Origin: Chrysemys picta bellii
Taxonomy: Eukaryota
Length of the DNA: 64,000 nucleotides
Direction: 5' to 3'
NCBI RefSeq assembly: GCF_011386835.1
Contig: NC_088792.1
Span: 289,478,001 to 289,542,000 of the forward strand
Shown here: positions 33,880 through 64,000 of the stretch, in pieces
How positions within the stretch are numbered: the first letter of the stretch is position 1
How the letters are laid out: each line of letters opens with the position of its first letter
Notes under the pieces: generated by a model
Told to the model about the DNA's origin: nothing
Databases searched by the model: none
The model's input: only the letters and a program-made list of their open reading frames with translations
Position numbers and translations under genes: made by a program

Positions 33880-34240
33880 CTTGCGGGGCACAAACCGCAC
33901 CCAGCTGCAAAACGGGAGGGTTGCTATTCGTGACGTCACACCTGTCCGCTCCGCCCCTAGCCCGACCGACACGCTCTCCGGCCAATCGGTGGCTGCGGTT
34001 TCCCAAGGGGGCGGGGAAGAGGCGAGGACCCGGAGGCTGGGGCCCAATCGGCGGCGCCTCGGACCCAATCGCGGCGAAGGGGATTCTGGGGGTTGTAGTC
34101 ACACGGGGCTGCTTCTGCCCATGCCAAGCCTGAGTCCCCGCCCCGTGCAATGCCCAGGGCCCCTCAGAGCCCCGCCCACAGCCGGGCTCCTCGCGCTCGG
34201 TTTCGATTTCCCGCAACTGGGCGAGCGGGCCGGCGTCCGC
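33880..34240. promoter_or_regulatory. Orphan CpG-island promoter (CRE, 3 CCAAT boxes, GC boxes, ISRE-like/E2F); candidate promoter of the ZNFX1-like gene
   Basis: TGACGTCA at 33931-33938; CCAAT at 33982, 34044 and 34065; GC boxes; GGTTTCGATTTCC at 34200-34212 overlapping TTTCCCGC. The target gene is inferred. Confidence 0.6.
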
Positions 34241-34465
34241 GGGGTCCTAGCGCCCGGATCCGTCCCCGCCCGCCCGGCGCCCGCGGGGTCCTAGCACCGC
34301 CCTGTCCCCTGCTGTCCGGCACCTGCGGGGTCCTAGCGCCCCCTATCCCCTACTCATCTGGCGCCCGCGGGGTCCTAGCGCCGCCCTGTCCCCTGCTGGC
34401 CGGCACCTGCGGGGTCCTAGCGCCCCCTATCCCCTGCCGGCCGGCACCTGCGGGGTCCTAGCACC
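34238..34465. repeat. About 42-bp minisatellite, 6 copies, alternating A/B units
   Basis: ggggtcctag recurs at 34241, 34285, 34327, 34369, 34411 and 34452. Confidence 0.9.
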
Positions 34466-37045: not shown

Positions 37046-37359
37046 GTCTCTACTTCCTTTCCGCCTGGCTCTGAGTGGCTCAGAAGCACAGGAATCAGTG
37101 AGAAATGTGATTTAACCCCACGCTCCAAAAGCTTTCTTGTCAAAAGCATGATCCTTTCCCCTCCCCTTCCTCCAACCTCTCGAGTACTGCATGTCTATGA
37201 AGATCACGTATTTAATATTCAGCTGAAACCTCTCCTCCATCAAAAGAAAGTAGAATGAAGGGCTGCAGCAACCCCATATTCAGTCAAAAATTTGTATATG
37301 ATAGCTAACCCATTGAGCCCTGTCCACGGTATCCCTACAATTCCCTACAATGGACATAT

Positions 37360-39136: not shown

Positions 39137-41377
39137 CCACACCATGATCACTAACATAGTGGAGGAGAGCTAGAAAGAGTTGTTGCATTCATACGGGGAA
39201 GAGGACAACTCCCTTCTTTGTGATAAATTTGTTAGAAAATGTGAAGAGTCTCTCCCTCCGGTGACAAGTATGTTTAACAGGCTCGCTTTTGTTTCCCTCA
39301 CCCAAATCACCCAAGTTTTATATGACAAATATTCCAACTGGTCAATTGCTTCTGGTTCCACTCGCCATTGGGAAAGGAAGTGCAGACGCACTGACCCAGG
39401 GATATGGTACACACCTAGGAGATGTTTGGTTGCTGCCCCAAATATACACTACATCCTGGTATAGCTACTGACTCTAACAAAGGACACCAACTCTCTCAGT
39501 TTCGATTCCTGACGTGCTCTCTCCGTTTCGATTCAATGACTCGTCGTGTGGCCCTGCCACATTGACTTAGAGACAACACTGTACAGGTGGTTGTTACACC
39601 TAAGATGTGTACAACTGAAAGACATTAACAAAAAAGTGTCTGTTTTTCTTTTTCAGTTTGTTTAATGCATTGGACTGTACGTTGTGTAGCGGTGGTGTCT
39701 GTGTATACAGCACCTGTACATTCATTTCGACCTTGCTGGAGAGACCATTATGGACATTAAACAAAGCAGAAATACCCTTGTAGAAAACCTGTGGAAAAAT
39801 TCCGAACATTCTGCACTGTCAAAAACTGGAATGATTTTCTGTGAAAAGACAAGAAATGTCCTGTATCACTGTTTCAGTAATCCCATCTGTAAAATGGACG
39901 TCTCCTTTAGCGGAGGGATGGAAAACGTAGCGTCTGTAAAGCACTCTGAGCTCTGGAGCGAAACTGAGCTAATTCCCTGACGTTCCCGGCAAGTGGACAC
40001 CAGCACTACACAGCTCAGCAAGTGGGAACCGAATCTCCACCAAAAGCCCCGACAAAGCGCAAACAATAACAACTCCGCCCCCTGCACAGCCCTGGGTGCC
40101 GTTCTGAACTGGGGAGAGTCTCCTGGGGGTTCGGAAAAGGGCAGGGCCAGCCAATAAGGCTGTAATGTATTATTGAATAGTCCCGTACAGATAGTAGCAA
40201 TGGCCATCTGTGGGAAGAACAGCGTCTCTTGCACTAAGATACTGAACACTTAAGGCCAAGTGTGGCTGTGAGACACGTGTCTCCAACTCCCAAAGTCATG
40301 AGCCAGGGAAGAATTTGGCTCTTAGCGCCAGGAAGGACATCTCAGAGCCAGCCCTGGGGCTCGCGGAGGCACAAGATGGCCATATTGCAGGGGACGGCTG
40401 GGTTAACGGAGATCCCCATGGTCCTTTTCCCACAGACCTGCTCCCGGGTCAGCACAGAGCAGGGGGGCCATGGGCCACAGGATCCCCACAGGGAGGCCAA
40501 GCCAGTGCTCCTCTGTTTGTAGCAAAGGCCATCGAAAGCAGAGAGGGGAGCGGTGAGGTGACCCCGGTTGCCCCCACATGCACCCGCAGAGCCCGGTCCC
40601 CACCCGCTCTCCTCAGCCAGGCCGTTCGGTCCCGGGACACAGACACGGAGCCCCCCAGGGGGAGAGGCTGCGACTCAGGACCTGCACTTCCAGCTTGTGT
40701 CCCACCAGGGAGCAGCGGAGCCGGCGAGTGCCACCTGCGCTCAGCATGGCCAACGGCTCACGGCTCTCCCTGCGGCCGGAAATCTCGCCTCAGCCGGAAC
40801 AGCCCGGCCCCCTCGGGAGAGACCCTGACACAGCATCGCTGTGACAGCAATGACCCCTCGCCCCCGCCAACCGGGCCCTGGCATCCACGTGTGCCGGGCC
40901 ACCGCCCCCAGGGCTTGGGGCCCAGGGGTTTGAATTACAGCTAGTTCTGTTTTTGTCATTGAATTAAATCTAAGCAGCCCAAATGCAGCCAATTATGAGC
41001 AAACTAGTCCCAAATCCCACAACCCGCGACGCCGGCTCAGAAAACACCGCCCTGGGCACTGCAGACTTGGCAACACGTCCACTCAAGCGCCTGGTGCGAC
41101 CAGCTTCCTCAGCCGGACATGGGTCAGCAAATGGTCCCCACCCCGCCCGTCCCTCTCACACCCCCACTCCAGGGCAGTGCTGCTGCTCACTGGAGGGAGC
41201 TGGGCGTGGGCGGCCCCCACCCCCTTGCCATGCCATCGCCTTTGGTTCCTGACCAATCCGTACCAGCTCCTCCACCTGGGCATGGGGAGACCGGCTGGCC
41301 TGGTGCAGACGCCCAACCCAGCCGTGAGGCTAGATCCTGTTCACGACGTGGAGCCCAAGGCCCGGACGGTGACCTGT

Positions 41378-42588
41378 TGTGACGTTAGGAGTGTGATATA
41401 ATATCTCATTGGAAGGTGACAGGGCCAGAAAGAGTTAATTAACTCACAGACTGACCTGACCCATGGCTGAACTTTAGAAACCGGTTAGGAAGATCTGTAA
41501 ATGAATAGAGCTTTGAAATGCAGCCGGCATTGTTAGAGGTAGAAGGGGAGGTGTTTGCTCAGGTCTTGTTAGGTAAGCAAACAAGTCTGGTCTATTGCTA
41601 TAGCTTTGATTCAAAGATCAAAAAAGGAATATTAACATGTAGGAAGACACTTGAGGGAAATAGTATTATTGTCTCTATGTCTCTTTGAAGGTTGTGGTAC
41701 CTGTATCTGAACTGTGTAATGGATAAATTACCCTGTGCTAATTGCCAGGATGTTTGGGAGAAGGAGAATTAAGCCTATTGTTTTCTCAGGCCGAAAGTCT
41801 GCTGGAAATGTATAAAAACCCTGGGACACGATCCTGCTTCATCTCAGATCTGCTTTGGGTTTCAAGAGGGGGAAACCGTAAGCCACAAGGATTGAGATCC
41901 CCAGTCACTGACTGGAGCCACCCTGAATATGGACATTGGACTATAACCTCTGGACTATTTCTAAAAGGACTTTTGGCAACTACAAGCTCATCTCTGCTAT
42001 GCATCTGAACCTCAAGAATTGAATTCAAGTCTGTCTGTATATTGATCTTTTAACCAACACTCTCTCTCTTTTCTTTTTTAATAAATTTTAGTTTAGTTAA
42101 TAAGAATTGGCTCTAAGCGTGTATTTTGGGTCAGATCTAAGTTATAATTGGACCTGGGTCTGATCCTTTGGGGTTGGAAGAACCTTTTCTTTTATATGAT
42201 GAAATAAGATTTTCAGTAATCAGCATCATACCTGATGTGTGTGTCTGGATGGAGGCCTGAGGCTTGGCACTTTAAGGGAACTGTGTTGTTTGAACTTCTA
42301 AAATAAATTAAAGGAGATATCCTATCTCCTAGAACTGGAAGGGACCTAGAAAGGTCATCAAGTCCAGCCCCCTGCCTTCACTAGCAGGACCAAGTACTGA
42401 TTTTGCCCCAGATCCCCAAGTGGCCCCCTCAAAGATTGAACTCACAACCCTGGGTTTAGCAGGCCAATGCTCAAACCACTGAGCTATCTCTCCCCCCCAC
42501 TAAGTAACCTGTTTTATCTGCCCCCATTATTTTGCAATTCACCCTAATTGAGTGACCTCAGCCGGCTCCCACGGGCAGCACCATCACA
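41378..42588 (+). mobile_element. Solo LTR with a nested SINE
   Basis: Termini tgtgacg…catcaca and a 5-bp TSD CCTGT (41373-41377 and 42589-42593). TATAAAAA at 41811 and AATAAA at 42080. Confidence 0.88.
42302..42497 (-). mobile_element. Tortoise-type Pol III SINE inserted in the LTR
   Basis: Near-identical reverse complement of the SINE at 38495-38697. Confidence 0.92.
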
Positions 42589-42725
42589 CCTGTATTAGGA
42601 CCCAGAGGGCACCAGAGCAGGAAAGATAAGTTTCTATTTCTCTGCTCAGCCACTTAGTCTCTCGGCAGAGCAGACAGAGGCAGCATCTGGGTGGGACCTA
42701 GTGCTGCCAACAGTCTCTTATTACA

Positions 42726-42890
42726 AGGGACCCGGCCCGGCTCAGCACCGGCCCTGGCCGCCCACAGCTCAGCGCCCTGGACAGGACCCGGACCGGCTCA
42801 GCACCGGACCTGGCCGCCCACAGCTCAGCGCCCTGGACAGGACCCGGCCCGGCTCAGCACCGGACCTGGCCGCCCACAGCTCAGCACGGG
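42726..42890. repeat. 56-bp minisatellite, 3 copies
   Basis: gacccgg(c/a)ccggctcagcaccgg…cacagctcagc at period 56. Confidence 0.9.
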
Positions 42891-44304
42891 GGAGGTACCA
42901 GAGGCAGGGGCACAGTGACAGACGTGCCAGGTATGCAGAGGGGAGCTAAGCTAGAGGGCTCAGGGACTCTGCTAACGGGACTCTCCATCCAGGAGACACA
43001 CCAGGGCAGGGGGACAGAGTGGAAAATGTGGCTGTAAAACCACAGAAATTGGCAGGAGGCTCAGGCACAGAGGCTGGCAGGTGCACGGGGGGGGGGGCCT
43101 CAGGAACGGAGGCGGGCGGGCGGCACAAGCTGCTGGGGGTGTGGATAAGGGCGGGTGACACTGGGGGCTGGGAGGGGGTGGATGCAGGCAGGTGGCACCG
43201 GGGACTGAGAGGTGGATGCAGACTGGTGGCCCTGGGGAATCAATCAGGGATGGAGGCAGACAGGTGGTGCCATCGGGGGCTGCGGGATCAGGGATTGAGA
43301 TGGGCAGATGGCCCCGGCAGCTGGGGACTCGGGGGTGGAGGTGGGCAGGTGGCCCCGGGGCCTCGGGGGTGGAGGTGGGCAGGTGGCCCCGGGGGCCGGG
43401 GACTCGGGGATGGAGGTGGGCAGGTGGCCCCGGGAGCCGGGGACAGAGGTGGGCAGGAGGCACCGGGGCAATTGAGGGCAGGGGGAGCTGAGAGCCAGGG
43501 GCTCTGGGGCAGATGTGGGGTAATCCTTCTGGCCCCATTGCCGTGTAGCTCCCCAGGGTGTTCGCTAGGGGTGGGCACATGCCCTAGAGCGTGGCCCCTG
43601 GCAGGGAAACGCTACCCGGGCGGGAGCTGACGCCAGCCTGTGGGCGCCTGGGTACCAGCACTGTGTGCCAGGCAGTGTGGGTAGGACACAATCCAGCCTG
43701 CCCTGCACGGGGAGCAGCTGGACCTAATGGGGTTTTCCCAGCCTCGGCGGCCAGGACTCGGGGACCCCTGCTGGGATTGGGGGGTTCAGGGACCATTCAC
43801 CTGTCGGGGGCTCTGGTCCCCCCAGCCCAGAATCAGGGGTTACGTGGACGCCTCCTCTCGCTGGTCTCACACTCCGGCTGCTGCTTCCCTCCTGCACCGC
43901 CAAGATCCAGCCCTTTCGGTGTGGCCGGCCCCAGAGCCAGGTCCCTGGCCAGCCACCAGGCCCCCGCCTCGCAGCCCCCAGCTCCCCACCTCGCAGCCCC
44001 CAGCCCTCACAGGCTGCAGCCCCATACAGAGCTTCCCTGCAGCCGACGTGGTCTGGTCACCCCATCTGTGCTATCCCAGCCCCTCCACTGCCCCCGGCAG
44101 CTCTGCCCCCCCACATTGCTCACTCAGTGGCACCAGCTGGCACCAGGGTTGGTCAGTCAGGTCTCTGCACGGCTGTGCTGTCTCCACTGCAGGCCCCCGG
44201 CGCCCGGCCCCCCCCCTCTGCCCACACGCAAACACGGCATTAGCTGAACCTCCCCGTGCCAGGCTGTGGCCAAACGCCTCCTGCACCTGCACCCGCTTCC
44301 GTGC

Positions 44305-46280: not shown

Positions 46281-47448
46281 AGGATGACTCAAACCAGTGC
46301 GGTTGGCCCTGTGCCCAGGGCGTGACAGTCCTGGCCACATAGAGGTGATACCAGGGTGCAGGGCTGGTGCCACCTCCCATCGGGGCTGCGCTGGGCAGGA
46401 GCTGTAAATCTGTCTGAGAGGCAGGCAGGGCCTTGCTTGGCCACACTCAGGGTCCCCTGCAGAGAGCAGCTGGAGGCCAGGCCCCCATCGGTCATTACCC
46501 TTTGTGCCATGGGTGCCCCCCCCACGTCCCATGGGCAGGTCTCTCCCAGGGAGACGCAGGCGGGGCCCAGAGACGCCCCTGAGCTGCTGAGGGCAGGCCC
46601 TGCCTCGCCATGCAGCCGACAAGCTCCTGCCTTTGCTCAGTGTCCCAGCAGTGCCTTGGGCCGGCTCCTGCCTGCTGTGCCAGGCTCCAAAGAGCTCCCA
46701 GGAGCTGTCTGGCCCAAATCTCCCCCCTGCCCCTCCGGGCTGAGCCACCCCCTCGGACAGGTGGAAGGTGCTTGTGGGCCCCTCGGGCAGACGTGCAATA
46801 TTATCACCACGTCTCCCGGCTGGGAGACTCCCCAGGGGACCCGCTCACCAGCCCCCTCCCCTCTCCCCTGCCTCCCCCGAACGCCGTCCCCTCCGTGATG
46901 CCCACACCCTCCGCACGTTTACGCCAGCGACGCCCACTGGGCAGCACTTGGCCATGCTGAACAGAAGAACCCCGAGTCCCTGGCCCGTCCACCCCGTGCT
47001 GTGTCCAACCAGCGCCCACAGAGCACAGTGCAAGGGGCTGCCCGTGGGCAATTCTGGGATACGTGGCCCCCGCCCGGGGCAGCGCCTGTCCAGCCCCCAG
47101 CAGCCAGTGACAGGCAGACACAGGTGGGCTCATCTCTCGTTTCCCACATCCTGCACAGCGTCCGCCTTCCGTGCACGTCCTCGTTCACCGCACCCGGCGG
47201 CTTTCGCTCCAGTGTCCGGGACGCCCCTCCTGCCCCGGTTCTCTGAGCTCAGCAGGGTTTGCAGCTCCCCCACTTTGGAGTCATGGGGCAAGGTCATTAG
47301 CATGGTGTTAACGAGGCGGCTCTATGCGTCCAGTTCCGTTCTCTGGAGCTGGGTGCGGATGCCCCCGTGACCAGGCAGGGTGGGGCTGGGCGCTTGTTCT
47401 GCAGCGTCGATTCCTCTTGTCTCTGAGCAGCTCCTGCCCTGCAGAGAA

Positions 47449-50400
47449 ATGTCTGGCCAGAAGAGGATGTGGCCGGACTGGCCTGACAGCGCCTGGGAGC
47501 CGGTGCCACCGAAAACTGCCCGGCTCTCCCCAGAGCCAGGGCCCAGCTGGAGGACGGATCCTTGCGCCATCCTCACTGACTTGGGAAAGCTCTGTGACCA
47601 CAGCCCCCAGCAACTCCTACCCTTCCTGCTGGACCACGACTACCAGCTGGAGCAGGTCGTGGAGAGCCCCGGCCTGAGCCCCGCCAGGGTGTATACGCTG
47701 CTGCGGGCCCTGAAGGTGGCGGTGGAGTGCGCTGGTGAGCCGGAGCAGGTCCAGCCGGTCCTGGCCCTGGCGCTGAGACCAGCTTTCGTGCTTAGGAGTC
47801 TGCTGGGTTTCATTGCCGAGCTGGAGAGCTTCCAGCACCAGGATGGGCAGATCTCCCAGGAGGTGATGGAGGACACGGTGGCTGCCCTGCACCATCTGCT
47901 GACGGCGTCCCCCGAGCAGACAAAGACCCTCCTCTGCTACCCTGTGGACCTTCTCTTCGCCACCGTCCAGAGACTCCAGAGCCGCGGCTTTCAGTTTACA
48001 TGGATCATCCAGAAACGGCTTCACGACACCAAGAGCCTGGTGGACTCGGCCTTCCCGCGGTGCAGTGCGCCCCTCGCCTCGCCAGCCTGCCGGGAGGATT
48101 TCCACGCCATCCCCATCTTCCCAACCCCGGAGGAGATATTTGTGGACCCTGGGCAGAAGCTGAAGCGCAACCTCCCCGTTGGGAAGTACGCGAGCGACGC
48201 GGCCTACCTGGACACGCACTTCCGCCTGCTGCGGGAGGATTTCGTCCGGCCCCTGAGGGCCGGGATCTCGGCTCACTTCTCCCTGCAGAACGTGTTCGGG
48301 GGCGCTGGGAAGCAGAGGGGGGCGCTGCGGCTCTATAGGAACGTGCAGCTGGTGAAGGTGGGCACCTCCCCAGCTGGTGCCATGTACATGGCCAGGTTCC
48401 AGGCCCCGCAGGGCTCCGCCCACGCCTCCTCCAAACGGCTGCTGAGCGGCTCCCTGACCTGCCTCATCTCCAGCGACTGTGGCCAGGTGTTGTTTGGGAC
48501 CGTGGTGGGGGGCAACAGGCCTCAGCTCCTGAAGGGGGCCGTGTGGTTGGACATTAAGGCAAACCACAGCGATCTCCTGACGAGGCACCTGGGGAAAACC
48601 AACTTCATCATGGTGGAGTCGCCGGCCTTCTTCGAGTCCTACCGGCACGTGCTGGAGGGGCTGCAGGAGCTGGACCCCGCCCGGGTGCCGTTCCAGAGCT
48701 ACGTCGTGCAGTGCCGCACCCCCGTCGCCCCACCCGCGCACTTCGGAGAGGACGTGACCTTTGACCTCTCTGTTCTGCAACCCACTGGGCGAGCGGACAA
48801 AGAGCCCATGGGGGACACATCTGAGGTAGGTCTGGGGTAGCGGGGGAGCCTGCCTTGCTCTCCCCTGGTCCTGCGGTCCCCCCAGAGCCAGGTGTGTGAT
48901 CTGAGTCCCGGAGCTCCGCTCCCACACTGGCACCGCAGCAAAGAGGGACTGAACTGGGCCTAGCGGGTGATCCGTCTCCTGTAGCAGATCCCACCCCCGT
49001 CCCTGTCCCGAATGGGCCAGCAGTGGCCCAAACGCAGCCCCTGCCGCTGCTCCAGTGGGACTGTTCGCGGGGCGGCGAGCCCCTGCCGCTGCTTGTGTTG
49101 CCATGGCTACCCTCCTATTTTGGTGCGTAGCTCGCTCAGAACTGGCACCTGAACCAGAATTACACCCCCCTCCCTTCCCCGCTCCAGTGTAGACGCACAC
49201 TCAGAAACACCTGCACATGTGGGAGTCCTTCCAGGAGAGGGCAGCAGCGCACGCGTCTCCACACCTGCACCATGGAGGGCTCCTAGGAGGCAGTTGAGAA
49301 CATGCCTGGCTCTTGGCTTTCAGGGGCACGTGACCGCGGTGGACCTGACGGCCGTGAGACCTTGCGACACCTATATGTGGTCTCCAGAGACATTTCCTCA
49401 CTTAGATGAGTCTCAGATCTTGGCCATTCGAATGGCCCTGACCAGGGAATTTGTGCTGATTCAGGGCCCACCTGGGACAGGTACGTGCTCTGCTTCCCTG
49501 CCCACCACTGCAATGGCTCTGGGCTGCCCTGCGGCTTGAGCGACCCCTGCTCCTCACCCTGCCTGCCAGGGCTGCACGATCGCCAGCGAACCTGGCCCCC
49601 AGGTGGGTTTTATCCTCCCTGGCCCAGCCGCAGGAGGGGCTGAGCCCACCCCAATGGGGCTTGTGCGCAAAGGAGACGCTCTCGCCCCTGCATTGCTGGA
49701 GATGCTGCCTTTGTGGTGTTAACAGCAGCCCCGAGAGCATCTTCGCTGGGCCTCCCCGCTGTAGCAGCAGGGCCTGTGACCTGGTCAGTGACCGAATTGT
49801 TCCTGGGCCCTGCCCCACCAGTCACCTCGGGCCGTTTCCTTCCAGGCAAAACCTTCATTGGGCTGCAGATCGTGGAGATCCTGTTGAGGAATCAGTCTCA
49901 GTGGTGGAAGGACCAGAGACCCTTCCTGGTCGTCTGCTACACAAACCATGCTCTGGACCAATTTATGGAAGGTACCTGGGACTACCAGGCTCTTGGCATT
50001 TGCCCCCAGTCCCTGGGCTTCCAGGGAGCCTCACGCAGCCCGTTGGGACGCCCCTCGGCTGCCAGCCTCTGGCAAGGCAAGATTGCAGCTGTTCCCCCAG
50101 CAAACCCTGTCACAGCTGCACAGCTCAATACGGCCGTCCCTCTGCCCTGCCCTTGGAGCGGTCTGGCGCCGTCGTGGGCGCTGAGCTCTGGGTAGGGCTG
50201 GGCCCCGTCGCTGGCGCCGAGCTCCGGGTACCGCTGGCTGGAGCTGTATTATCAGCCTCACCAGGGAGGCCTGAGCACTGCCGGACATCTCACGTCAGCA
50301 CGATCGCTGCCTCTCCCTGCACAATGCACCATACAGTCCCCTGCTTCGAGCCCTGAGCAATCCCCCCTGTGCCTGTGGGACACGGGCTGGGCTGCGGCCA

Positions 50401-53400
50401 GGCTCCACCTCCAGCCCCCCACGGGGCTGACGTGACCTCCAGCGCTTGCGAGTGGTGGGAAGAGGTTCGCTGTCCTGCAGGGTTCACGTCCCGCATCGCT
50501 GCCCCATGAGTTCCCAGCTGAGCTGACTAGCAGCATCAGGCCAGGCCAGGGTCCGTGTGGTCAGTGCATCCAGCCCTGCCTCTTGCCCTCCATGCAGGGA
50601 TCCTGCAGTTCCAGCCCTCCGGCGTGGTGCGCATTGGGGGAAGGAGCAGAAGCGACAAGGTGGCAGCGTGCTCCTTGAGGAACCTTCGCCAACAGCAGCT
50701 GCCAGCGCTCCTGGGGGCCGCGGAGAAGCACCAGTATGGCTGGGTATGTAGCTAGAGCGTGGGCACGGGGCAGCGCTCACACTGCGGCCCCAGCAGTGCT
50801 CTGGGGGGAGCACCATTGCATGCCCCGGGGACAGCGGTGTGGGGGAGCGAGAGCCAGGTGATAGGGTGTGCTCTGGGGGCTGGGCGGGAGGGCCATAGCT
50901 GGGTGAGGCCCCACCCCCGGAGCACGGCTCTCCCTCCCCCGCCCTGCCCTGTGCCCCGAACCGGGAGGCTGCCCCATGCTCTGTTTCCCCCCCAGATGCG
51001 GAAGGCCTTGCAGAAGCAGAAGGAGAGCATCGCCTACCGCACCGCGGTGCTGGAGCTCCTCCGCCGAGGGATCCTCACGGACACAGAGCTGGCAGCGGAG
51101 ATCCGCGATGACAACCTGGATTGCTCCTGGGTGAGGAGAGGGTTGGGAGGACACAGAACCCAGCTGCCCCTTCCCCAGGGCCGGGCTCCCCTGGCCAAGC
51201 CCGGCCGGGGTGGGCGGCTGGGGCCCCGTCTCAGCGCATGCTGTGTCGGACCCTCCACAGAGAGCGGGGCGCTTCGACATGTGCGACTGGCTGAAGATCT
51301 ACCCCGTGGCGCAGGAGGAGAAGCCGTCCCAGGCTCAGGGCGGGGGCAGGAAGGCAGGTGAGTGGCTGGGCAAAGGGCCGGGCGCTGCCCCCGGCAGTGC
51401 AGAGCCCAGGCACACAGGGGCATAGCCGGCTAAGCTCATGAGCCCTCACACCTGCCTGAGCAGGGGAACCAGCCAGGGCTGCGGGAGGGGCAGCAACCTG
51501 CCCGCCAGGTTTTCAGGGGGCTGCTGCAGGCGGAGCAGCTGGTGATGGGGGGTGCAGGGGGCAGGACACCCCCGCTCTAATCCAGCATGAGCTGTGGGCC
51601 TTGAAGACCTGGGGTGGGAGGCCAGAGCCAGGCCCCAGGCCCCGAGGCCAGTCACAGGAGGGGAGAGCTGACCTGCTCTGCTGACGCTCCCCAGGGCAGC
51701 TCCTGTCTCTGAAGCGGTGGGGCAGGATTTGGCCATGAGCTCACAGGCCTGTGTCTGCCAGGCACAGTGGGGGCTCCATGGAGCTCCCACCCCGCTAGGG
51801 TGACCGGATGGGAGTGGGGGTGGGGGTCACAGGGACCTGTATAAGAAAAAGCCCCAAATATAGGGACATTGGGTCACCCTGCCCCCCCAGGCGCGGAGGA
51901 AGAGCTCTGGCCGTGCCACAGGGATGAGCGGGCCCTGGATGACGAGGACGATTTGGACCCTTCCGAGTGGCGGCGGAGCACAGTGGAGGAGAAGTTTGCT
52001 TACATCCTCCCCGCCGAGGGCAGGTAGAGTCTGGGGCCCTGGGCAGATGCCACGTGCCCGTTACTGGGCTCAGCACAGCGCCAGGGTGCGGGCACAGGCC
52101 CGGCAGCTCTGCCAGCCTCATGCCGCCCTGTGTCTGTGAGACGGGACAACACGGCCGGGCCTCAGTGGGGAGGGGAGGCTCTTTGGGAGCACAGGCATCA
52201 CTGCCCCTTCCTGCAGCCGTGGCAAAGCTCCGGCCCCCGCAGGGCCGGGACACAGGGCCAAGAAGCTGCAGCATTCACTGCTGTGCAGAGACCTCAGCTC
52301 TCTGCCCTGCGCCAGCACCACGGCCCCCCAGCTCCGGCCCCCGGCCGTCCTGCTCTGAAAGGGAGACGACGCTGCCACGGTCTCTGTATTGCCCCTGGGA
52401 ATGGCAGCTCCGGGGCATCCCACATCCCCCTGCCAGCCCCTGTCTGAGACCCGCCGAGGCAGGGCCCACGGCCATTGGAACGGGTGTGGGAGCTGCGGTC
52501 ACCCTGGCTGCGGCTGGTGCCCCATGGCCAAGGTTGGGGTTCACATGGAGCAGGGCCCACAGGCTGCAGCCCCCCAAGCCCTCCCCACGCTGTTCAGTCA
52601 CTGCCCAGTCTCTCCCGCAGCTCCTCACACCAAGGGATACGCAAATGCTTGGAGGAGGGTGACATCATGACCGACGAGGACGTCGCGAACGTGAGAGACG
52701 TCTGGGAGCTGCGGCTGAGGGATCGCTGGTGTCTCTACAGGTCTCCCCACCCCACCCCCAGGCAGCACCCTCCCTCCCCGAGCCCTCCAAACCACGGCAT
52801 GGTCCTGCCCGGACCCTTCACGAGCTCCCGGGGAGCCGGGACCTCTGGGAGAGGCGGGTGACGCACGCCAGCCTAGCCCAGCCCAGGTCGCCTGGGAGAT
52901 GAGGTTAATACGCAGGGCTGCCCTCGGGTCTGTGGAAGGAGCCCGAGCTCTGGGCACAGGCCGGTGGCTGGAGCCAATAACACAGCTCCAGCCAGTGCCG
53001 GGCCTGCTGCTTGGTGGGAGGGGGCCCCCGGGGAGCAGGGGCCAGGTCCTGACTCACTCTGCGGGGCCAGGCACGGCCTGTGAGTTGCACCCTGCCGCAC
53101 GCGGCTGGACAAGCCTGGCCGGAGCCGGCCCGAGCTGCACCCTCGCTCTGAGTCCTGCGGGAACGTGAGTCTGCCTGGCTGAGCCGGACGGCGCTCCGTG
53201 GAGCGGGCGGGGGGGTGCGTCACACACTGACCACTGGGCTACCAAACCCCCGGCCCCGGGAGTCACTGCGGGAGGGCTGGTCCTGGTTCCACCCCCTGCA
53301 CTCTGCACCCAGGAGATGGATGCTGGCCTACGAGCGTGAGCTGAAGGAGACGCTGGTGGAGAAGCTGAAGGAGTACGAGAAGAAGGCAGCCCAGCTAGCG

Positions 53401-55606
53401 GAGCTGACCTTCCAGGAGGACCTGTGGGTGCTGAAACGAAGCCGGGTCATTGGCATGACGACAACAGGTGAGAACGCTCGCAGCTGCCCCCCACCCTGCC
53501 CAACCGGAGACAGCCTCAGCCACGGACAGAGGTTCGCAGCCACGGAGCGTAAGGTCAGACGGGACCAGCAGATCGTCTGTTCTGCTTCCGTGTATCCCCA
53601 GCCATGCCCGCTCACTAAACCCAGCTCCCGGAAGGAGAGCAGGAGACCCGGCTGGCGTGTGCCACAGGCAGCAAACCCCGAGGGGCACCGGTGTCCGAGG
53701 CCCCCAGTGGCAGGGAAAGGAAGAAGTGAGACCCCCAGTAATCCTGGCAAGGGACCCACACGCTGCTGTTATTTTTCAAGTCGGGCTGGCCATACATTAC
53801 ACAATGCGTTGGGGGAGAGGGTCCCTAATTGTGCCTGGTTGTTGCAGTCTTACGAGAGGCAGGTACGTCATGAAAAATCACCCCAAAATGTGTTCATTTC
53901 TGCTCAGCCCCTCAGACAGGCCCAAACCAGGCAGCACCCGGCACCAGAATAAACCAGCAACATAATCCCTGCTCCAGAGAGCCTCCAGTCTAAACGGGGG
54001 GTCAGCAAGGGAGAGCCACGGCCTGACCCAGGAGGGGAGGGGGCAGGAAGGTCAGGCCTGGGGACAGCACAGGGGCTTGGCTGTTGGACGACAGGATAGG
54101 GTGGCCCAGTGCGGCCGTTATGTTCTTCTTGGGGGACTACTGGAGTGGCTTGGAGGTGGCAGCCATTCTACACCCTGGTGCTGGACGTGCGGAAGTGGCT
54201 GAAGGTTTCAATCCTCCTAGAGAAATTGCCCCTTGCGAAGGGATTTCAAGGCAGGGAGGGGGATGGTGGCTGAAGAACGCGACCCCTGCAAGGGGAACTG
54301 GGGGTTACTACTGCACTGACGGGGGCCGGGTCTGTGTGCACTGGAGGCCCCGGCAGGGCAGGTCTCCGCCTAGACCCAGCTTGTACGGGGTCTGTGGGCC
54401 AGACGCCAGAGCCAGCCGGGGAGCTGGGCCGTGCTGAGAGGGACAGAATTGGAGCGGCGCAGGCCAGTTTGTTCGAGTAAGAGAGTGCTTCGGCCAAGAG
54501 GCTCCGCCCTGCCCCATCTCCCCGGGGTGAGCACAAAGCAGACTGCCCGAGCTCTGCCTCGAAGGCGCGTCCCTCGGGAGGAGGCCCTGCCCTCGGACAG
54601 ACCGCCCCGCCCCTCACAAGCCTGTGCTGGCGGAGGGCCCCTGAGCTCCAGGAATGAGGCTCTCACACCGACATCAACAGGAGCTGGTCCAGGCCTGACC
54701 TCTGTTAACTGATTCCAGTGACTCCCCTGCTGCGGGGCAGACACACGCTTGGGACCACAGAAGGTGTGAAAAGCACAAAGCCCCATGGCCCCCCCTGTAA
54801 CGCCAGCCTTTTTCCAGTCATCCGGGACCTCCCCCGATCGCCAGGAGTTTTCAAAGCTACGGGAACTCCTCACTTAAAGTCGTCCCGGTTAACGTCGTTT
54901 CGTTGCTGACCAATTAGGGAACATGCTCGTTTAAAGTTGTACAATGCTCCTTTGGCAGCCGCCTGCTTTGCCCACTGCTTGCAGGAAGAGCAGCCCGTTG
55001 GCGCTAGCTGGTGGGGGCTTGGAACCAGGGTGGGCTGGCAGCCCCCCATCAGCTCCCCTAAGCTCCCTGTGCCGCAGCTGCCCCCACTGCCATGTGCTGC
55101 TCCTGCCCTCTGCCTTGGAGCTGTTCCCAGAGACTCCTGCTTGCTGTACAGAGGGAGGGCAGAAGTGGGGGGCTGTCCGGGTGTCCCCCTCCCCCCTGCT
55201 CCCTGCTTACCCCATTGCCATAGAGCAGGGGGGACACCCGGCAGGGTTCAGGACCGAGGGAGCTTCCAGGCAGCAGCTGCAGTCTCAGCAAGCTGATCTA
55301 ATTAACAAGGCAGCAAACTTAAAGGGGAAATGCGCCTCTCTCTCTCTCCCACACACCGTGTGTCTCTTCGTCTCTGTCTGTGATGCTCTCACCTCTCCCT
55401 CCATTCCTGCTGCCTTGTAGAGTGTGAGGCTACATTAACAACGTGTTAACCCTTGAGGGCTCAGCCGAGTGCTAGTTCATCATTTAGCAGTAAGGCATTC
55501 CCTGGGAAATATTCCACCCTCTTCTACCCTCTGACTTCACCGCCTCAACCAAGCTTCACAATCATCATTGCTGTGTACAGTATTCACTTGTTTGTTTAAA
55601 ACTTAT

Positions 55607-55654
<48 letters not shown>

Positions 55655-58600
55655 CAAAAGACATTATTTTTATATTATATATATAAAAAGTCTTTTGTCT
55701 GGTGAAAAAAATTTCCCTGGAACCTAACCCCCCCCCCCATTTACATTCATTCTTATGGGGAAATTGGATTCACGTAACCTCATTTTGCATAAAGTCGCAT
55801 TTTTCAGGAACAGAACTACAACGTTAAGTAAGGAGTTACTGTAATGGCCAATGGCTCTGCAATCACATCCACCAACTCCTTTAGCACTCTCGGATGCAGC
55901 GCATCCGGCCCCATGGACTTGTGCACGTCCAGCTTTTCTAAATAGTCCCGAACCACTTCTTTCTCCACAGAGGGCTGGTCATCTCCTCCCCATACTGTGC
56001 TGCCCAGTGCAGCAGTCTGGGGGCTGACCTTGTTCGTGAAGACAGAGGCAAAAAAATCATTGAGTACATTAGCTTTTTCCACATCCTCGGTCACTACGTT
56101 GCCTCCCTCATTCAGGAAGGGGCCCACACTTTCCTTGACCACCTTCTTGTTGCTAACATACCTGAAGAAACCCTTCTTGTTACTCTTAACATCTCTTGCT
56201 AGCTGCAACTCCAAGTGTGATTTGGCCTTCCTGATTTCACTCCTGCACGCCTGAGCAATATTTTTATACTCCTCCCTGGTCATTTGTCCAATCTTCCACT
56301 TCTTGTAAGCTTCTTTTTTGTGTTTAAGATCAGTAAGGATTTCACTGTTTAGCCAAGCTGGTCACCTGCCATATTTACTATTCTTTCTACACATCGGGAT
56401 GGTTTGTTCCTGCAACCGCAATAAGGATTCTTTAAAATACAGCCAGCTCTCCTGGACGCCTTTGCCCTTCATGTTATTCTCCCAGGGGATCCTGCCCATC
56501 TGTTCCCTGAGGGAGTCAAAGTCTGCTTTTCTGAAGTCCAGGGTCCGTATTCTGCTGCTCTCCTTTCTTCCTTGTGTCAGGATCCTGAACTCAACCATCT
56601 CATGGTCACTGCCTCCCAGGTTCTCATCCACGTTTGCTTCCCCTACTAATTCTTCCCTGTTTGTGAGCAGCAAGTCTAGAAGAGCTCTGCCCCTAGTTGG
56701 TTCCTCCAGCACTTGCACCAGGAAATTGTCCCCTACACTTTCCAAAAACTTCCTTCCTGGATTGTCTGTGCACCGCTGTATTGCTCTCCCAGCAGATATT
56801 GGGGTGATTCAAGTCCCCCTGAGAACCCGGCCCTGCGATCTAGTAACTTCTCTGGACATACTCCAGAGACTTGATTTTAACCTGCAGTTTGTTCCATCAT
56901 TGCTACAAGCCTGAACCAAGAACTTTGCCATTACTGTATGTAATTGATTCCATGTAACCAATTCTAGCTCTCATCTAGATCTTTTTCCTTTTATGAATAA
57001 ACCTTTAGATTTTAGATTCTAAAGGATTGGCAACAGAGTGATTTGTGGGTAAGATCTGACTGGTATATTGACCTGGGTCTGGGGTATTGGTTTTCATAAC
57101 CATTTGTCCCCATAAGGAGCAGTGCTGGTGGTGATACTGGGAAACTGGAGTGTCTAAGGGAATTGCTTGTGTGACTTCTGGTTAGCCAGTGGGGTGAGAC
57201 CAAAGTCCCCTCGGTCTGGCTGGTTTGGTTTGCCTTAGTTTGTAAAGGAACCCCAGCCTTGGCCTGTAACTGCCCTATTCTAAGCAATTTGTCCTGAATT
57301 GATACTCTCAGTAGTGTCTCTCCAGAGGCCACATCGTTACACCAGGGCACCCACCGGGCAGCGCATGTCCCTGCCACAGCAGGAATTCCCACCTGTGCCA
57401 CGCTGCCCTCTCCCCACGTGCTCACCCTGCTTGTTCGTTGCTCCTAGGGGCTGCCAAGTACCGAAAGCTCTTGCAGAAAATCCAGCCCCACACTGTGATT
57501 GTGGAAGAGGCAGCAGAGATCCTGGAAGCTCACGTTCTAACCTGCCTCACGCCGGCCTGCAAGCACCTCATCCTGATTGGAGATCACCAGCAGGTAAATG
57601 CAACAAAACCAGCCTCCCAAGCCCATCCTCCCTAGTGCACGTCCTGCTACATCTACCCCAGGCTTCCCTTGCTGCCCACAGGGACCACTCCTTTCCCCGG
57701 CACTCCTCCCAGGCACACTCCCCGTGGCACTGCTGAAATGGCACAGCCCTCTGTGAGGTAGGACATACGTCCCTTGGCAGGTCGGCCCGTTACAGGAGAT
57801 CGGTGGCTGGGAGGGGCCGAGGGCGGAGTTCGTGTGTTTGCTGAGCTATGAAAGGGGAACGGTGTGACGGCTGCTGCTTCCTTCGAGCTGATCCAGGAGC
57901 GCAGGAGATTAAAGCTCCGCAGCTCCCTTGTAGCTTTGCCCTTCTGCAACCTGGTCACCGATATCAAAATCCAGCCCCTTCCCAATGGCCGAGCGCTGCG
58001 TGTCCTGTGTGTGCAGCACCCAGACCTGGCTCCGTGTTTTCCAGCTGCGGCCCAAACCCGCCGATTACACCTTGGAGAAGAAGTATTTCCTCGGCATCTC
58101 CCTGTTCGAGCGCATGATAAATAATCAGATCCCCTATGTGCAGCTGCTCTATCAGGTGAGTGATGCTGTCCATGCCTCTGGGAGGGGCCTGGCTGCACCG
58201 ATGGCTCCCCACGCCCCTCCCTGTGGCAGGGGTACCTGCTCGCAGCCGCTGGTGACCCTCTCCGGTTGCTGGTGGGAAGGTTGTACAGTGACAACGTATC
58301 ATCCCCGTCTGCCTGCAGAGCCTCTGACAGCACTGGCCTGGTTACGAACGCAGACGGTCTCCGCAAGATCCTCACTCTGTGGCACAACTCTGGGGAGGGC
58401 AGACGGTGTCAGGGTGGGGAATAGCAGCGAGTAGCCGAACAGACACCAAGCCAGGACCCCACACGCACTGGGAGGCCTTGGGCTCCTCCCCGGGCAGTAT
58501 TGACAAAATATGTGTTTCACCAACGCAGCTGATGGGCGCAACGTGAACTATGGCCAGAATTTTCCATGTCCGGGGCCTGCTTGTGGGCACTGAAATAAGC

Positions 58601-61600
58601 GTCTGGGTTATTGAAAGTGCTGAGCAAGGGTCACGCTAACTGAAGTCACTGGGAGCTGCTCGGGGCTCAGCCCCTTTGAGCAACTGGGCACTTAGGGGCC
58701 CAAATCATGGGGGGGCAGCATCACTATAGTTGTGACTTGCTTTCTGTTTAACAGCCAGTTTTCCTAAGTGCTCGGAAATCCACAGAAGCGTTGTCAAGGG
58801 AACTAGCATTAATTAAAGAGAAGGAGGACAAAAGTGTCCAGCCAGCAGCAGCATTAGAATAATATAACCAGGCCGCCTGCGCTTCACCCATTTCCTGAAC
58901 AACGGGACTGAGTGTGATCAAAGAAAAGCAAGTAGCTGTGACGCTCATTAATGACGCCTCAGGACAGGCATCTGTAACGGAGAGCCCTTATCGTAAGGAC
59001 GGGTATAAGGAGCCCAGTGGCTGATGTGGCACCAGGATACAGGCCTCAGTCAGACCTGTATCTTAGGGGTATCACGAGAGAAACAGGCAGAAAATACACT
59101 GCAATTTCTGCACTAACTCATCCAGTCTACACAAACCAAGGGTTTGCCCCCCCACTGATTTCAACCCCCATCAAAGTGCTGAACTTCCTTGGAAGAGGGG
59201 TCTGAAGGAATGTGGGACACTGGAAAAAAAAAAACTCATAGCAAATCTCAATCCATGTGTCCCCCCGCCACAAACTGCTACCAAAAAACCAAGCTGTGCC
59301 CAAACGACAACATACATTTGAAAAGGAGACTCTGCCCCAAACGGCAGAATGTGTATAGACATGGTCCCCCTGCTAGACGGGAAATCCAGGTGTAACTCTC
59401 TCGAGAGGTGCCACCACCCTGTCATCAGGGCCACGCGTCGAGTCAGTGGCGCAAGTTGGGGTCATTTGGTCAAGTGGTTCCTCAGGTGAAGGTCTCCCCA
59501 CCCAACAACTGAAATTGTTCTAAAACCCACGTGCATAGTGCGATTGTCAGGGGCCAGCCCAGCTCCGACAGCCGCTGGCCGACTCCCCAGCTTGGCTGCT
59601 AGGCAGTTAACGAGCCCGGCTGCCCTGCCTTGGAACTGAGAGAGGGGCCACAGCCCTTGCTGATTTACAGGGCCACCCAGAGGAGTCAGGGGGCCTGGGG
59701 CAAAGCGGGGGAGCGGACATAAAAAAAGGCGCCATCCGCTGCAGCGCTTGTACTCACCGGGCGGCGCTCCGAGTCTGCGGCGGCGGCGGCGGCGGCGGGT
59801 CCTTCACTCGCTCCGCGTCTTCGGCAGCACTGACGGACCCGCCCCCGAAATGCCGCCGCGACTGAAGGGCCCACGGCCGAAGTGCCGCCGAAGACCCGGA
59901 CCACCGCCGGGTGAGTAGCCAGGGAGGGGATTCTCGGCCAGGGCTTGCGGGGCCCCTGCGGGGCCCGGGGCAAATTGCCCCACTTGCCCCCACCCAAGTG
60001 TCTCTGCTGATTTAGCAGCCCTGCTTATAAGCCTGGCCCGCACAGCACATCAGCAGCTGCTCAAGGCATTGCTGGCCCCCAGCTGGGCTCGCTCTTGTTC
60101 CAGTCCCTGCTCCTGCCCCTGCCCCCCTCCGGGTTCGGATTCTCGCTTCGATCCCCAGCTCTGCCTCTAGCTTCCAGCTCCAGTGGAAACCTCTGGCTCC
60201 GGCATTTGGCTTCTGTCCCCTCGGCTCGTTTCCTGGGCCCTGCCCACCCTGGGCCCAGCTCTAAGTGGTAGGTCGAATGCCCACTTCCACCATTAGGCCT
60301 GTCCTGGTGACAGGAGGGGAGAGAACAGCCACGGGGATGAATGGAGCAGTTCACAGCATGCAGGGCGATTGGGTCAGGCTGCGTACAGCTCCAGGCACAG
60401 GTGCCGACTTTCCATAGTGCCGGGGAGGTTGGACCCCTTCCCCCAAGGCCTCGCCCTGCCCCCACTCCACCCCTTCCCCCACGGCCACACCCACACCCCG
60501 CCTCTTCCCTTCCCCCACTCCACCCCTTCCCCCACGGCCACACCCACGCCCCGCCTCTTCCCGCCCCCACTCCACCCCTTCCCTTCCCCCACGGCCACAC
60601 CCACGCCCCGCCTCTTCCCGCCCCCACTCCACCCCTTCCCTTCCCCCACACCCACGCCCCGCCTCTTCCCTTCCCCCACTCCACCCCTTCCCTTCCCCCA
60701 CGGCCACACCCACACCCCGCCTCTTCCCGCCCCCACTCCACCCCTTCCCTTCCCCCACGGCCACACCCACACCCCGCCTCTTCCCGCCCCCACTCCACCC
60801 CTTCCCTTCCCTTCCCCCACGGCCACACCCACGCCCCGCCTCTTCCCGCCCCCACTCCACCCCTTCCCTTCCCCCACGGCCACACCCACGCCCCGCCTCT
60901 TCCCGCCCCCACTCCACCCCTTCCCTTCCCCCACGGCCACACCCACGCCCCGCCTCTTCCCGCCCCCACTCCACCCCTTCCCTTCCCCCACGGCCACACC
61001 CACGCCCCGCCTCTTCCCGCCCCCACTCCACCCCTTCCCTTCCCCCACGGCCACACCCACGCCCCGCCTCTTCCCGCCCCCACTCCACCCCTTCCCTTCC
61101 CCCACGGCCACACCCACGCCCCGCCTCTTCCCTTCCCCCACACCCCGCCTCTTCCCGCCCCCACTCCACCCCTTCCCTTCCCCCACGGCCACACCCACGC
61201 CCCGCCTCTTCCCTTCCCCCACTCCACCCCTTCCCCCACGGCCACACCCACGCCCCGCCTCTTCCCCCCCACGGCCAACACCCACACCCTGCCTCTTCCC
61301 GCCCCCACTCCACCCCTTCCCCCACGGCCACACCCACGCCCCGCCTCTTCCCCCCACGGCCACACCCACGCCCCCCCTCTTTCCTCCCCACAGCCACACC
61401 CACACCCACACCCTGCCTCTTCCCCCCCACTCCACTCCACCCCACCCCTTCCCCCATGGCCACACCCACGCTCCACCTCTTCCCACCTCCACTCCACCCC
61501 TTCCCTCAAGGCCACACCCACACCCCGCCTCTTCCCGCCCCCACTCCACCCCTTCCCCCACGGCCACACCCACGCCCCGCCTCTTCCCGCCCCCACTCCA

Positions 61601-63038
61601 CCCCTTCCCTTCCCCCACGGCCACACCCACACCCTGCCTCTTCCCGCCCCCACTCCACCCCTTCCCCCACGGCCACACCCACGCCCCGCCTCTTCCCACC
61701 CCCACCCCACCCCTTCCCCCAAGGCCTCGCCCCGCCTCTTCCCACCCAGTTCTGCCCCCTCCCCAAGTGCTCCAGCCCTGGAGCCCCCACGGAGTTGGCG
61801 CTTGTGTCTCCAGGGGCTGTTCTCTTTCGTCTGAGAACATCTCAAGGAGCTGAATGGGCCACGTTACACATGGGCAGAGCCCCTTTGCCCTAGCTTAGAC
61901 CCCGAATGGATGACGGAGTCTGGGGCTCCCCTCCACTCCCCCTAACCCAGGCCCGGAGGGACAGAATCTCCTAGCCCAGCGCAGCTGGTGGAAAGTGTCC
62001 TTCCGAGTGCCCTCCTCTGCCCCCCAGCATCTAGCTCCGGTTCAGCTGCAGCCCCCGAGCCTTGGGCTAGCCAGGGGGCAGTGGCATCTCCGCTGCACAT
62101 CACTGGCGCTGGTGTCTGAGTCAGCTGCCCAGGTCACCTGCCAGCCGTAACGCTTGGTCCTAGAAGGGTGATGAGCCCATACCCAGGCGCCTCCCGAGGG
62201 GATGTGCATGAGTTACCCCTCGGCAGCAGGGCCTGGCCCATCATGGGGGTAACAGGCCCCACTGCTTCACTCAGCTCCTCGTAAACCCAGAGAATCCAAA
62301 CTGCCACCCGCGGTGCTATGGGAAAGTGGATGGGGAATCCGTCAACACCTCTTCTGAGATGGCGCACTAGGGATCCTAGAGCCCCCCCACTCCTGGGGGC
62401 TAGTGAGCTGCTGGGCTGGCTCGGTGAAAACAGCCACACCCCGCTCCCAACCCCCCTGCAACAGGCAGATTTCAAGACTCCACGAGGGTTGGAGCATCCA
62501 GCCACAACAGTCACCAAGCAACCCCCTGGGGCCTGTCTAATAAATACTGTAACTCAGACCAACCACTAGGTCTAGGGAACGGCGGTTACCATACCGACAG
62601 GCTCGGTAACACCGATCGTCCCGACCTGGCAGCCGGCGAACAGAAGTGGTGGACAGACGGAGCAGGGCGGCTGTACCACGTGCCAGCTGCTGGTGGGGGG
62701 TGAGAACAGCTTTAGGATTTTGTTGCTAGATGCAGGCCCATCGGCCCCATCGTCCAGTCTAGTTGCCTTTGAGGAAGGCTCCAATCCCTTCATCAAAGGG
62801 CTGGCAGCTGCCAGCCCGAAGCAGGCGGAACTGTAACAAACGGGGAACAAACGGTTAATCCACGGCCAAGGGAGGTTTTTTAAATAGTTACCAAAGAATA
62901 ACCGTGGCTCTCAGCTGGGTGTCCCGTTCTTGTCTCAAACAGCACCGCATGCGCCCAGAGATTTCCCAGCTGCTGGTGCCCCTCTTTTACAAACAGCTCA
63001 AAGACCACGATGCCGTGGCTGAATACGAACAGATCAAG
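47449..63038 (+). CDS. ZNFX1-like (NFX1-type zinc finger-containing protein 1-like) SF1/UPF1-family RNA helicase, 5' part (933 aa); the gene continues beyond the window
   Basis: Exons 47449-48825, 49324-49480, 49846-49971, 50598-50743, 50996-51130, 51261-51357, 51891-52023, 52621-52740, 53313-53467, 57448-57593, 58045-58155 and 62943-63038 (2799 nt). All are GT-AG and phase-continuous with no stop. ZNFX1 signatures: [118 protein letters not shown]. The start codon is uncertain (acceptor at 47444, ATG at 47449). No symbol is given because it looks like a paralogue rather than the orthologue. Confidence 0.93.
54860..55841. mobile_element. Non-autonomous pogo/Tigger-like (Tc1/mariner) DNA transposon
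   Basis: Inverted termini cgggaactcctcacttaa… / …ttaagtaaggagttactg and a TA target duplication (54858-54859 and 55842-55843). Confidence 0.85.
55611..55650. repeat. (TG)20 microsatellite
   Basis: Read directly; lies inside the Tigger-like element. Confidence 0.98.
56855..57341 (+). mobile_element. 3' half of an LTR, same family as 35961-37045
   Basis: Collinear with about 36520-37045 (ccagagacttgatt…aacctgcag…catcgttaca). Intact AATAAA at 56996-57001. Confidence 0.85.
59668..60006. mobile_element. GC-rich hAT-type MITE
   Basis: Starts CAGGGCC, with an 8-bp TSD CTGATTTA (59660-59667 and 60007-60014) and internal inverted repeats tactcaccgggcggcgctccg / cggaccaccgccgggtgagta. Confidence 0.8.
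60445..61745. repeat. 57-bp C-rich minisatellite, about 22 variant units
   Basis: acggcc recurs at 60819, 60876, 60933 and 60990 (period 57). The unit is a multiple of 3 and has no stops, which explains the 370-590-aa ORFs. Confidence 0.95.
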
Positions 63039-64000
63039 GTAGGTGGAAACACTTCCCGTAGCTGGGAATCTGTCTGCCTGTGCCACGTGACGGAGCCACC
63101 TGCCAGCCCGGGCAAGAGTGTTCGGGGAGGGCGTGGGGAGCGAGGGCATGGTTATTACCAAAGGGATTCTAATGTATTAGATGCATCCCACTGAAGCTGT
63201 TAACAAGCCCACGGTAGAGCAAGAAACCAACTACAGGGCTGGTTGCTCCCATCCTTCTGCCTTGGCTCACCGAAGGAGCCTGCCATGCGCGCCTCAGGGC
63301 AGAGTTCATTTATCAGACTAGGTTCCCTCTGGATCCAGATGAAGCCAACGGGACCGGCTGGTGGAGACTCTGTGACTGGGGCATTTGTGAAGGCAGCTCT
63401 TTCTCCCCCACTTAGCCCTGTTAGGCAGCACTACAGCCCCCCGGTGCGGTGAATGGGGAGTTGCCCACGGCTGGCTTGTTTCCTTCGGTTTGTTCTCATC
63501 CTCACCTGTAGGGCTGGCTGGAGAATGCAGGGGAAAAATATCCCAAACACCGTTCCAGGAGATTTTGAACATTCAGCAAGTTCTGGCTGCTTGGGAAGCT
63601 GGAGGGAAACGTCCTCAGTTAACCATTCAGGGAGGATTTCTGCAAAACTATAGAAATTTCAAAACTTTTCCAGCCAGCCATAGTCATTTTTCTGTGTGTG
63701 CTCCTGGGTGTCTGGTGTGGGGGGCTCTTCCTTCTGGCTGGGGAGGCCAAGGGGAGTTTTAATGGTTAACTAACACACACACACACGCTTTGAAGGAAAA
63801 ATAAACACATGGGGTGCCCTAAGCACTAGATTATCCTTCCTCCCAGAGGTAACAGGCTCTTTCGTGCTCATCCTCTGCACCTTGGTTTTAAACAAGCCTC
63901 GGACCTGTAATTCTATGCTACTGCTGAGGTGTGACCGGCAGCATCAGGAAGTGGGATCTGAAGCCGTCTCCATGGGAGATGAGCTGCACACCAGCAAAGC

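Follow-up and report, generated by a model that had tools for sequence, protein, structure and literature searches.

A second, intact ZNFX1-type gene in the turtle Chrysemys picta bellii and its apparently undescribed vertebrate lineage

The stretch of DNA analysed here (hereafter the window) comprised 64,000 nucleotides of the turtle Chrysemys picta bellii (assembly GCF_011386835.1, NC_088792.1:289,478,001-289,542,000, forward strand), situated near the end of contig C2. It carries an intact, spliced second copy of ZNFX1, which occupies a locus and a clade separate from those of the canonical gene. Twelve exons between 47449 and 63038 (all features of the gene lie on the plus strand), bounded by AG/GT ends throughout, were spliced to 2,799 nucleotides encoding 933 amino acids with zero stops, and the helicase motifs GPPGT^GKT (interrupted by an intron in phase 1), ^LRP, SLFER and Q^HRM were present; the 12-exon, 933-residue open frame with intact SF1 motifs claimed in an initial annotation of the window was thereby rebuilt. 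A thirteenth exon begins 457 bases beyond the window (L005:457-3795), ends with TAA and completes a protein of 2,045 amino acids. It encodes the second RecA lobe, the NFX1 zinc-finger stalk, the Z-RING, the RZ finger and a proline-rich tail, and the zinc-finger region that had been placed beyond the window was thus recovered there. The helicase domains matched PF13086/PF13087 and the RZ finger PF20173 (E 2.5e-24), while the tail consists of 16.8 copies of a 42-bp unit. Short frames directly after the stop codon (L005:4080-4511), which we take to resemble a Ty3/gypsy gag remnant, have similar sequence at the end of the turtle database model P0006.

Splicing was followed in sequencing runs whose type (RNA or DNA) was guessed, none being on record as RNA, and whose tissue and treatment were hidden. 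Part of exon 1 was present in 19 of the 24 listed runs (14 of these 19 guessed to be RNA), and four runs were compared over 46300-53600. All eight junctions among exons 1-9 were seen as GT..AG joints (eight in run X2, seven in X1 and five in X9); run X15 gave 0 of 8, with even, DNA-like coverage across the introns. Because the longest X1 contig differed in only 3 letters over approximately 1.4 kb of exon 1, it stems from the window copy and not from the approximately 94% identical duplicate described below. In X1 and X2 a loose end of 72 letters, preceding 47428, mapped to 42898-42927, followed by CAG|GT, and placed a non-coding 5' exon (42856..42930, a minimum extent with undefined 5' end) that is joined to the acceptor at 47431. 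Since an in-frame TGA lies in this exon, translation starts at the ATG at 47449.

Coding exon 1 (47449..48825; amino acids 1-459) encodes a short N-terminus, the ARM domain and the 1B beta-barrel (Pfam ZNFX1, PF25396), and is followed by a phase-0 intron (48826..49323) whose joint was found in X1 and X2. Exon 2 (49324..49480) terminates in phase 1 within Walker A, exon 3 (49846..49971) encodes the Walker A lysine K513 and motif Ia, and exons 4 (50598..50743), 5 (50996..51130) and 6 (51261..51357) encode the 1C insertion, which begins in exon 4 with fewer basic residues than in the canonical protein. An acidic segment aligning to the human autoinhibitory plug region lies in exon 7 (51891..52023), and exon 8 (52621..52740) has a weak donor (GTCTCC) that is yet used in the contigs guessed to be RNA. 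Exon 9 (53313..53467) covers the motif Ib region, and the loose end after 53468 in X1 and X2 runs on into the first bases of exon 10 (57448..57593), which encodes Walker B (E835-E836) and motif III. Exon 11 (58045..58155; Y872, the equivalent of human Y1043), exon 12 (62943..63038; HRM motif, H902/R903) and intron 12 (63039..64000, where it leaves the window towards the terminal exon 13) were placed from sequence alone. Intron 11 contains a C-rich minisatellite (60454-61747; 1.25 kb, period 57, approximately 22 copies).

Own-genome searches gave three ZNFX1-type loci in this turtle. The locus on contig C13 is canonical ZNFX1, 97% identical to the Gopherus protein and 74% to that of cat. Its identity to the window protein is 39%, the latter being 60% identical to a lizard member and 55% to a salamander member of its own clade. 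Both genes have 12 coding introns, so the description of the window gene as intron-rich did not hold. Eight introns occupied an identical alignment column and phase, two had the same phase in a gappy region, one differed in phase, and one (48826-49323) was extra in the window gene, where it had been predicted; it falls inside a single 1,833-nt exon of the canonical turtle gene, which has in turn an intron after codon 20 without a counterpart in the window gene. The phase-1 intron within Walker A is shared by the two turtle genes, as had been expected. Since the C13 gene grouped with mammals, birds and crocodile and the window gene apart, the latter is a paralogue, as proposed, and a 1:1 orthologue of mammalian ZNFX1 was ruled out. 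Neither 1:1 orthology nor disabled downstream exons nor a lack of expression, the outcomes that the initial annotation had set against its own proposal, was found.

The duplicate, approximately 94% identical to 37.7-78.9 kb of the window (in continued numbering), was located at C3:6666216-6705391 (L014-L018). A copy of window 10.6-25.3 kb, the TSSK-type kinase region, lies nearby in the opposite orientation (C3:6722123-6736785, L026-L027). The gene copy on C3 is broken by a stop at codon 82, by frameshifts and by the loss of 2.6 kb from the last exon, and it served as a reference for constraint. Over 1,062 codons the intact and broken copies differed by 28 synonymous and 52 amino-acid changes; when polarised with three turtle outgroups, 38 of the latter fell in the broken copy, 8 in the intact gene and 6 were left unpolarised (binomial p 9e-6). 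The ratio of nonsynonymous to synonymous change (dN/dS) was approximately 0.18 for the intact and 0.87 for the broken copy, assuming an even split of synonymous changes. The claim that the gene is under constraint thus stood, and a pseudogene or a disabled downstream exon was ruled out by the intact exon 13 and this purifying selection.

Homologues were gathered by three word-indexed searches, one exhaustive search (50% cluster representatives) and cluster look-ups. Out of 462 proteins, 56 scored better against the window-gene clade, although 3 unnamed ones (two of which were placed in a tree) apparently fall outside it, the named members belonging to turtles, tuatara, lizards, six bird genera (owls, eagle, cormorant, gannet), salamanders, a caecilian, bowfin, sharks and rays. 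A tree of 50 rows (FastTree, 1,717 columns) gave the window-gene clade (24 rows) and the ZNFX1 clade (22 rows) a support of 100 each, and both roughly tracked the species tree; judged from these sequences, the split between them predates the divergence of sharks and bony fish. The named matches listed for the clade included no mammal, crocodilian, snake or teleost, and loss in these groups is not proven because the searches were word-indexed and length-limited, the exhaustive one showing 50% representatives.

The naming of 30 representatives revealed a third jawed-vertebrate lineage, sister to canonical ZNFX1, with members in the elephant shark (Callorhinchus, P0215), Albula (bonefish), Megalops (tarpon) and the frogs Mixophyes and Discoglossus (P0302, P0299, P0335 and P0133); the own-genome search gave no member of it in the turtle. 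In free trees this lineage and lamprey were closer to ZNFX1 than the window-gene clade was. The latter fell outside lamprey plus ZNFX1 with a support of 99, among unresolved invertebrate rows (22/28 rows, 955 columns, LG+C20). Constraining the tree to a vertebrate clade (p 0.51) or to a clade of jawed vertebrates (p 0.27) did not lead to rejection in the approximately unbiased test. A simple second-round ohnologue, for which we presume the 8q/20q paralogon to be the setting, was not established, given that the third lineage and lamprey lie nearer ZNFX1 in the free trees.

Many models of the clade were incomplete, all as database annotations and not as genomic DNA. The bird models (P0122-P0129; 1,170-1,380 amino acids) end inside the zinc-finger stalk, without Z-RING and RZ, with 25-27 of 57 stalk cysteines in two models checked and Glu or Asp in place of K446 in the four that were aligned. 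Among the shark and ray members (P0130-P0132, P0134-P0136), the RZ histidine is missing from four shark models, and the ray models end past the first helicase lobe and have a degenerate Walker B (DE/DD). The models of Caretta and Gopherus flavomarginatus are fragments or frameshift-like. Database models named 'NFX1-type zinc finger-containing protein 1-like' in turtles, lizards, salamanders, bowfin and sharks represent the same gene and clade; that of Chrysemys picta bellii (P0001) is 100% identical over exon 1 and 99% over the last exon, with 1,849 amino acids against 2,045 here and a different repeat tail, and such names are automatic only. No paper on the clade was found in the literature library searched, and passages of PMC11959080, PMC12585102, PMC9334734 and PMC11804602 do not mention such a lineage; the 'znfx1b' of PMC12234341 is a salmon homeolog. 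The clade has thus been annotated automatically as 'ZNFX1-like' and is apparently undescribed as a separate lineage.

Functional residues were compared by means of human numbering from 10.1101/2025.10.14.682297, 10.1101/2025.09.05.674436 and PMC13710534, mapped via macaque P0096. Among the ATP-site residues, seven of eight were identical, in addition to Y627F; six of nine core RNA contacts were kept, in addition to K1207R; and 55 of the 57 stalk cysteines common to macaque and canonical turtle ZNFX1 were retained. The zinc-site and E2-contact Phe residues of the Z-RING (5/5) and the RZ residues (7/7) were all kept, and by alignment exon 13 supplied F1401, C1417, H1419, C1447 and C1450 of the Z-RING and C1683 and H1704 of the RZ finger. 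Changed relative to human were Y450S, K1186D, the basic trio of the ARM domain (K143/K147/K180), the ARM dimer residues (V219R, V226A, T230S, M268Y) and six of eight 1C contacts, the first 1C helix having three basic residues against nine. The acidic plug region has 11 D/E (13-14 in human-type proteins) and a conserved RxLDD motif, but a gap falls within the helix. The residue that acts as linchpin in human ZNFX1, Q1623, is A1451 in the turtle protein. All 22 tetrapod members of the clade that were parsed (one was unparsed) have Ala, Ser or Thr at this site, whereas among 167 parsed of 169 canonical-type proteins it was Gln (141), Arg (19), Lys (5) or His (2).

At the level of domains the paralogue has in common with human ZNFX1 (PDB 9q9z, 9eve) the ARM domain, an SF1 helicase with 1B and a long 1C insertion, the EEAA Walker B, the NFX1 stalk, Z-RING/Miz and RZ finger, and catalytic and zinc residues. 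A predicted ARM model matched the human ARM domain (9eve_A; template modelling score 0.78 on the target, root-mean-square deviation 2.9, 15% identity, E 1e-3), and 9q9z was matched as well (E 1e-12). A C-terminal model with a predicted local distance difference test score of 83 gave no match at E <= 0.001 in the fold search, generic helical bundles being the only hits. The human protein has approximately 140 residues before ARM, against 36 in the paralogue, and 37 residues after the RZ histidine, against 341, mostly proline-rich repeat. RNF213 shares, by the PF20173 match and hits in the PDB, the RZ zinc site and its Cys/His pair but is an AAA ATPase and not an RNA helicase. ZNFX-1 of Caenorhabditis elegans is a family member acting on RNA (PMC11959080) and, unlike the turtle paralogue, is without the RZ finger (10.1101/2025.10.14.682297).

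Upstream of the gene, the consensus of the interferon-stimulated response element (ISRE), RGTTTCNNTTTCY, was found twice in the window (34199 and 42629), where shuffling predicts 0.08 copies, although shuffles underestimate such tracts. The copy at 42629..42641 (+), which precedes the 3' boundary of the non-coding exon by approximately 290 bp, is a candidate interferon-responsive element; that at 34199-34211 lies in a GC-rich promoter-like stretch (33900..34250, +) with motifs that we take to be CRE-like (cAMP response element), GC-box-like and CCAAT-box-like. A looser ISRE pattern matched six times in 304 kb around the gene. The core TTTCNNTTTC occurred 7 times in the window (0.84 expected), including 34201, 35176, 39645 and 42631; all seven cores (793-42640) share one orientation. 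These four sites are spread over 34201-42631, and the cluster of interferon regulatory factor (IRF) sites that had been described is not a tight one. GAAANNGAAA sites were also present upstream of canonical turtle ZNFX1, and from the consensus ISREs an antiviral role of the paralogue is plausible.

The neighbouring genes carry Maestro-HEAT, protein kinase, DUF383, WD40 and Maf1 domains, and we take them to be MROH1, TSSK5, HGH1, WDR97 and MAF1, in the order of human 8q24.3. The window gene would then sit between HGH1 and WDR97, presumably in an ordinary conserved gene order. The intron-containing, testis-specific-kinase-like gene with a Pkinase domain lies at 15909-24795 (+) and is, as we assume, TSSK5, a pseudogene in human; the HGH1-like gene (DUF383) lies at 26300-29593 (-), with a GC-rich promoter-like stretch near 30900-31100. 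Reverse-transcriptase and GIY-YIG-like frames at 1794-3018 (+) presumably belong to a Penelope-type element, and long frames at 126756-130114 (-) in continued window numbering (L011) resemble, we presume, a DIRS-type retrotransposon.

The reading that we favour, at a probability of roughly one half, is that the protein, as a member of an old second jawed-vertebrate ZNFX1 lineage, would be an interferon-induced, RNA-activated helicase and ubiquitin ligase (E3) in which ubiquitin is routed mainly via the RZ cysteine. By analogy with human ZNFX1, single-stranded RNA would displace the acidic plug and thereby trigger hydrolysis of ATP, a ubiquitin-conjugating enzyme (E2) of the UBE2D type would be bound by the Z-RING via F1401, and ubiquitin would move to C1683 of the RZ finger, with H1704 as base. 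The human linchpin serves a direct route to lysine-63 (K63) chains, clustering and entrapping RNA (10.1101/2025.10.14.682297, 10.1101/2025.09.05.674436), and its removal shifts flux to the lysine-48 (K48)-biased RZ (10.1101/2025.09.05.674436), while activity is abolished in Q1623A combined with C1860A (10.1101/2025.10.14.682297). Because the linchpin is Ala in the turtle protein, its direct K63-chain route is predicted to be weak, with an output biased to K48-type chains and turnover, and fewer basic residues in 1C and ARM may give a shorter or different RNA footprint.

Several observations weigh against this reading. Human Q1623A alone merely reduced full-length activity (10.1101/2025.09.05.674436), and small linchpin residues are not confined to the clade, since Thr, Ser, Ala or Leu was found in 21 of 102 parsed unnamed representatives outside it and Ser in the third-lineage protein P0215 of Callorhinchus (which also has Cys in place of the RZ His). 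Within the clade, the bowfin member keeps an Arg linchpin and sharks vary, and with small residues occurring outside, another contact may substitute for the linchpin. Losses of single residues in ARM and 1C are uncertain because these regions align poorly (16% and 26% identity, respectively). Junction reads cover exons 1-9, the junctions of exons 10-13 resting on sequence, in runs of guessed type and hidden tissue. Interferon induction is probable as read from the ISREs, whose pattern follows the ISRE consensus but was fixed after a first scan, with an understated shuffle expectation and an unmapped transcription start. Finally, because models are truncated or fragmented in birds, Caretta and Gopherus, the lineage seems dispensable.

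Among the alternatives, the best surviving, albeit unlikely, is a functionally redundant duplicate in which both ubiquitin routes of ZNFX1 are still active, with compensation for the Ala linchpin. The conserved domain order, ARM fold, ATPase, Z-RING zinc site, E2-contact Phe and RZ would fit it, as would the partial effect of human Q1623A (10.1101/2025.09.05.674436) and the small linchpin residues of other lineages, but a linchpin of Ala, Ser or Thr in 22/22 tetrapod members against 0/167 canonical-type proteins, and the low identity of ARM and 1C, point to functional divergence. A role in germline small-RNA silencing in place of interferon immunity is considerably less probable. In its favour, heritable small RNAs of C. 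elegans depend on ZNFX-1 for their maintenance (PMC11959080). The initial annotation had seen a germline hint in the testis-gene neighbours, and a TSSK-type kinase gene and a WD40 gene (presumably TSSK5 and WDR97) do lie nearby, but that hint proved weak, as HGH1-like (DUF383), Maestro-HEAT and Maf1 genes are also neighbours, and two consensus ISREs lie upstream. Slightly more improbable again is a regulator of canonical ZNFX1, which would co-assemble with it on RNA, ubiquitylate it in trans, speed its turnover and so end the response. The human protein can act in trans as a ubiquitin ligase, and turnover is driven by the K48 chains that its RZ finger makes (10.1101/2025.10.14.682297, 10.1101/2025.09.05.674436); the paralogue keeps the RZ finger without the linchpin, and the helicase-only bird forms would fit a modulator, but the ARM dimer residues differ. 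A decaying duplicate with little present function, as the fragmented or frameshift-like Caretta and Gopherus flavomarginatus models, two ZNFX1 pseudogenes listed at unstated loci for the olive ridley turtle (PMC11804602), the degenerate RZ of sharks and the degenerate Walker B of a ray might suggest, is very improbable and already disfavoured in view of the intact 6.1-kb frame, the splicing, the 8 against 38 amino-acid changes and the identity to a lizard and a salamander member.

Deficiency of ZNFX1 causes a severe immune disease of childhood, and the papers of 2025-26 leave open how the two ubiquitin routes and the helicase each serve antiviral defence. Beyond the favoured reading of RZ-routed ubiquitin transfer, a wider proposal is made tentatively and is itself doubtful: that a second ZNFX1 of vertebrates, as old as the genome duplications or older, has gone unrecognised and would be an RNA ubiquitin ligase with a single route, a natural counterpart of Q1623A degrading and not entrapping RNA-bound complexes. 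It would have been dismantled stepwise, with loss of the RZ histidine in sharks, Walker B in rays, the E3 module in birds and the gene in mammals. Outside mammals, at least three lineages are lumped together under the genome labels 'ZNFX1' and 'ZNFX1-like', a point of importance for immune transcriptomics of reptiles and fish and for lists of pseudogenes. The lineage offers natural variants under selection (linchpin-less tetrapods, E3-less bird models and RZ-degenerate sharks) and, if the wider proposal were true, these would form a natural series in which ZNFX1's helicase function and its K63 and K48 functions are separated.

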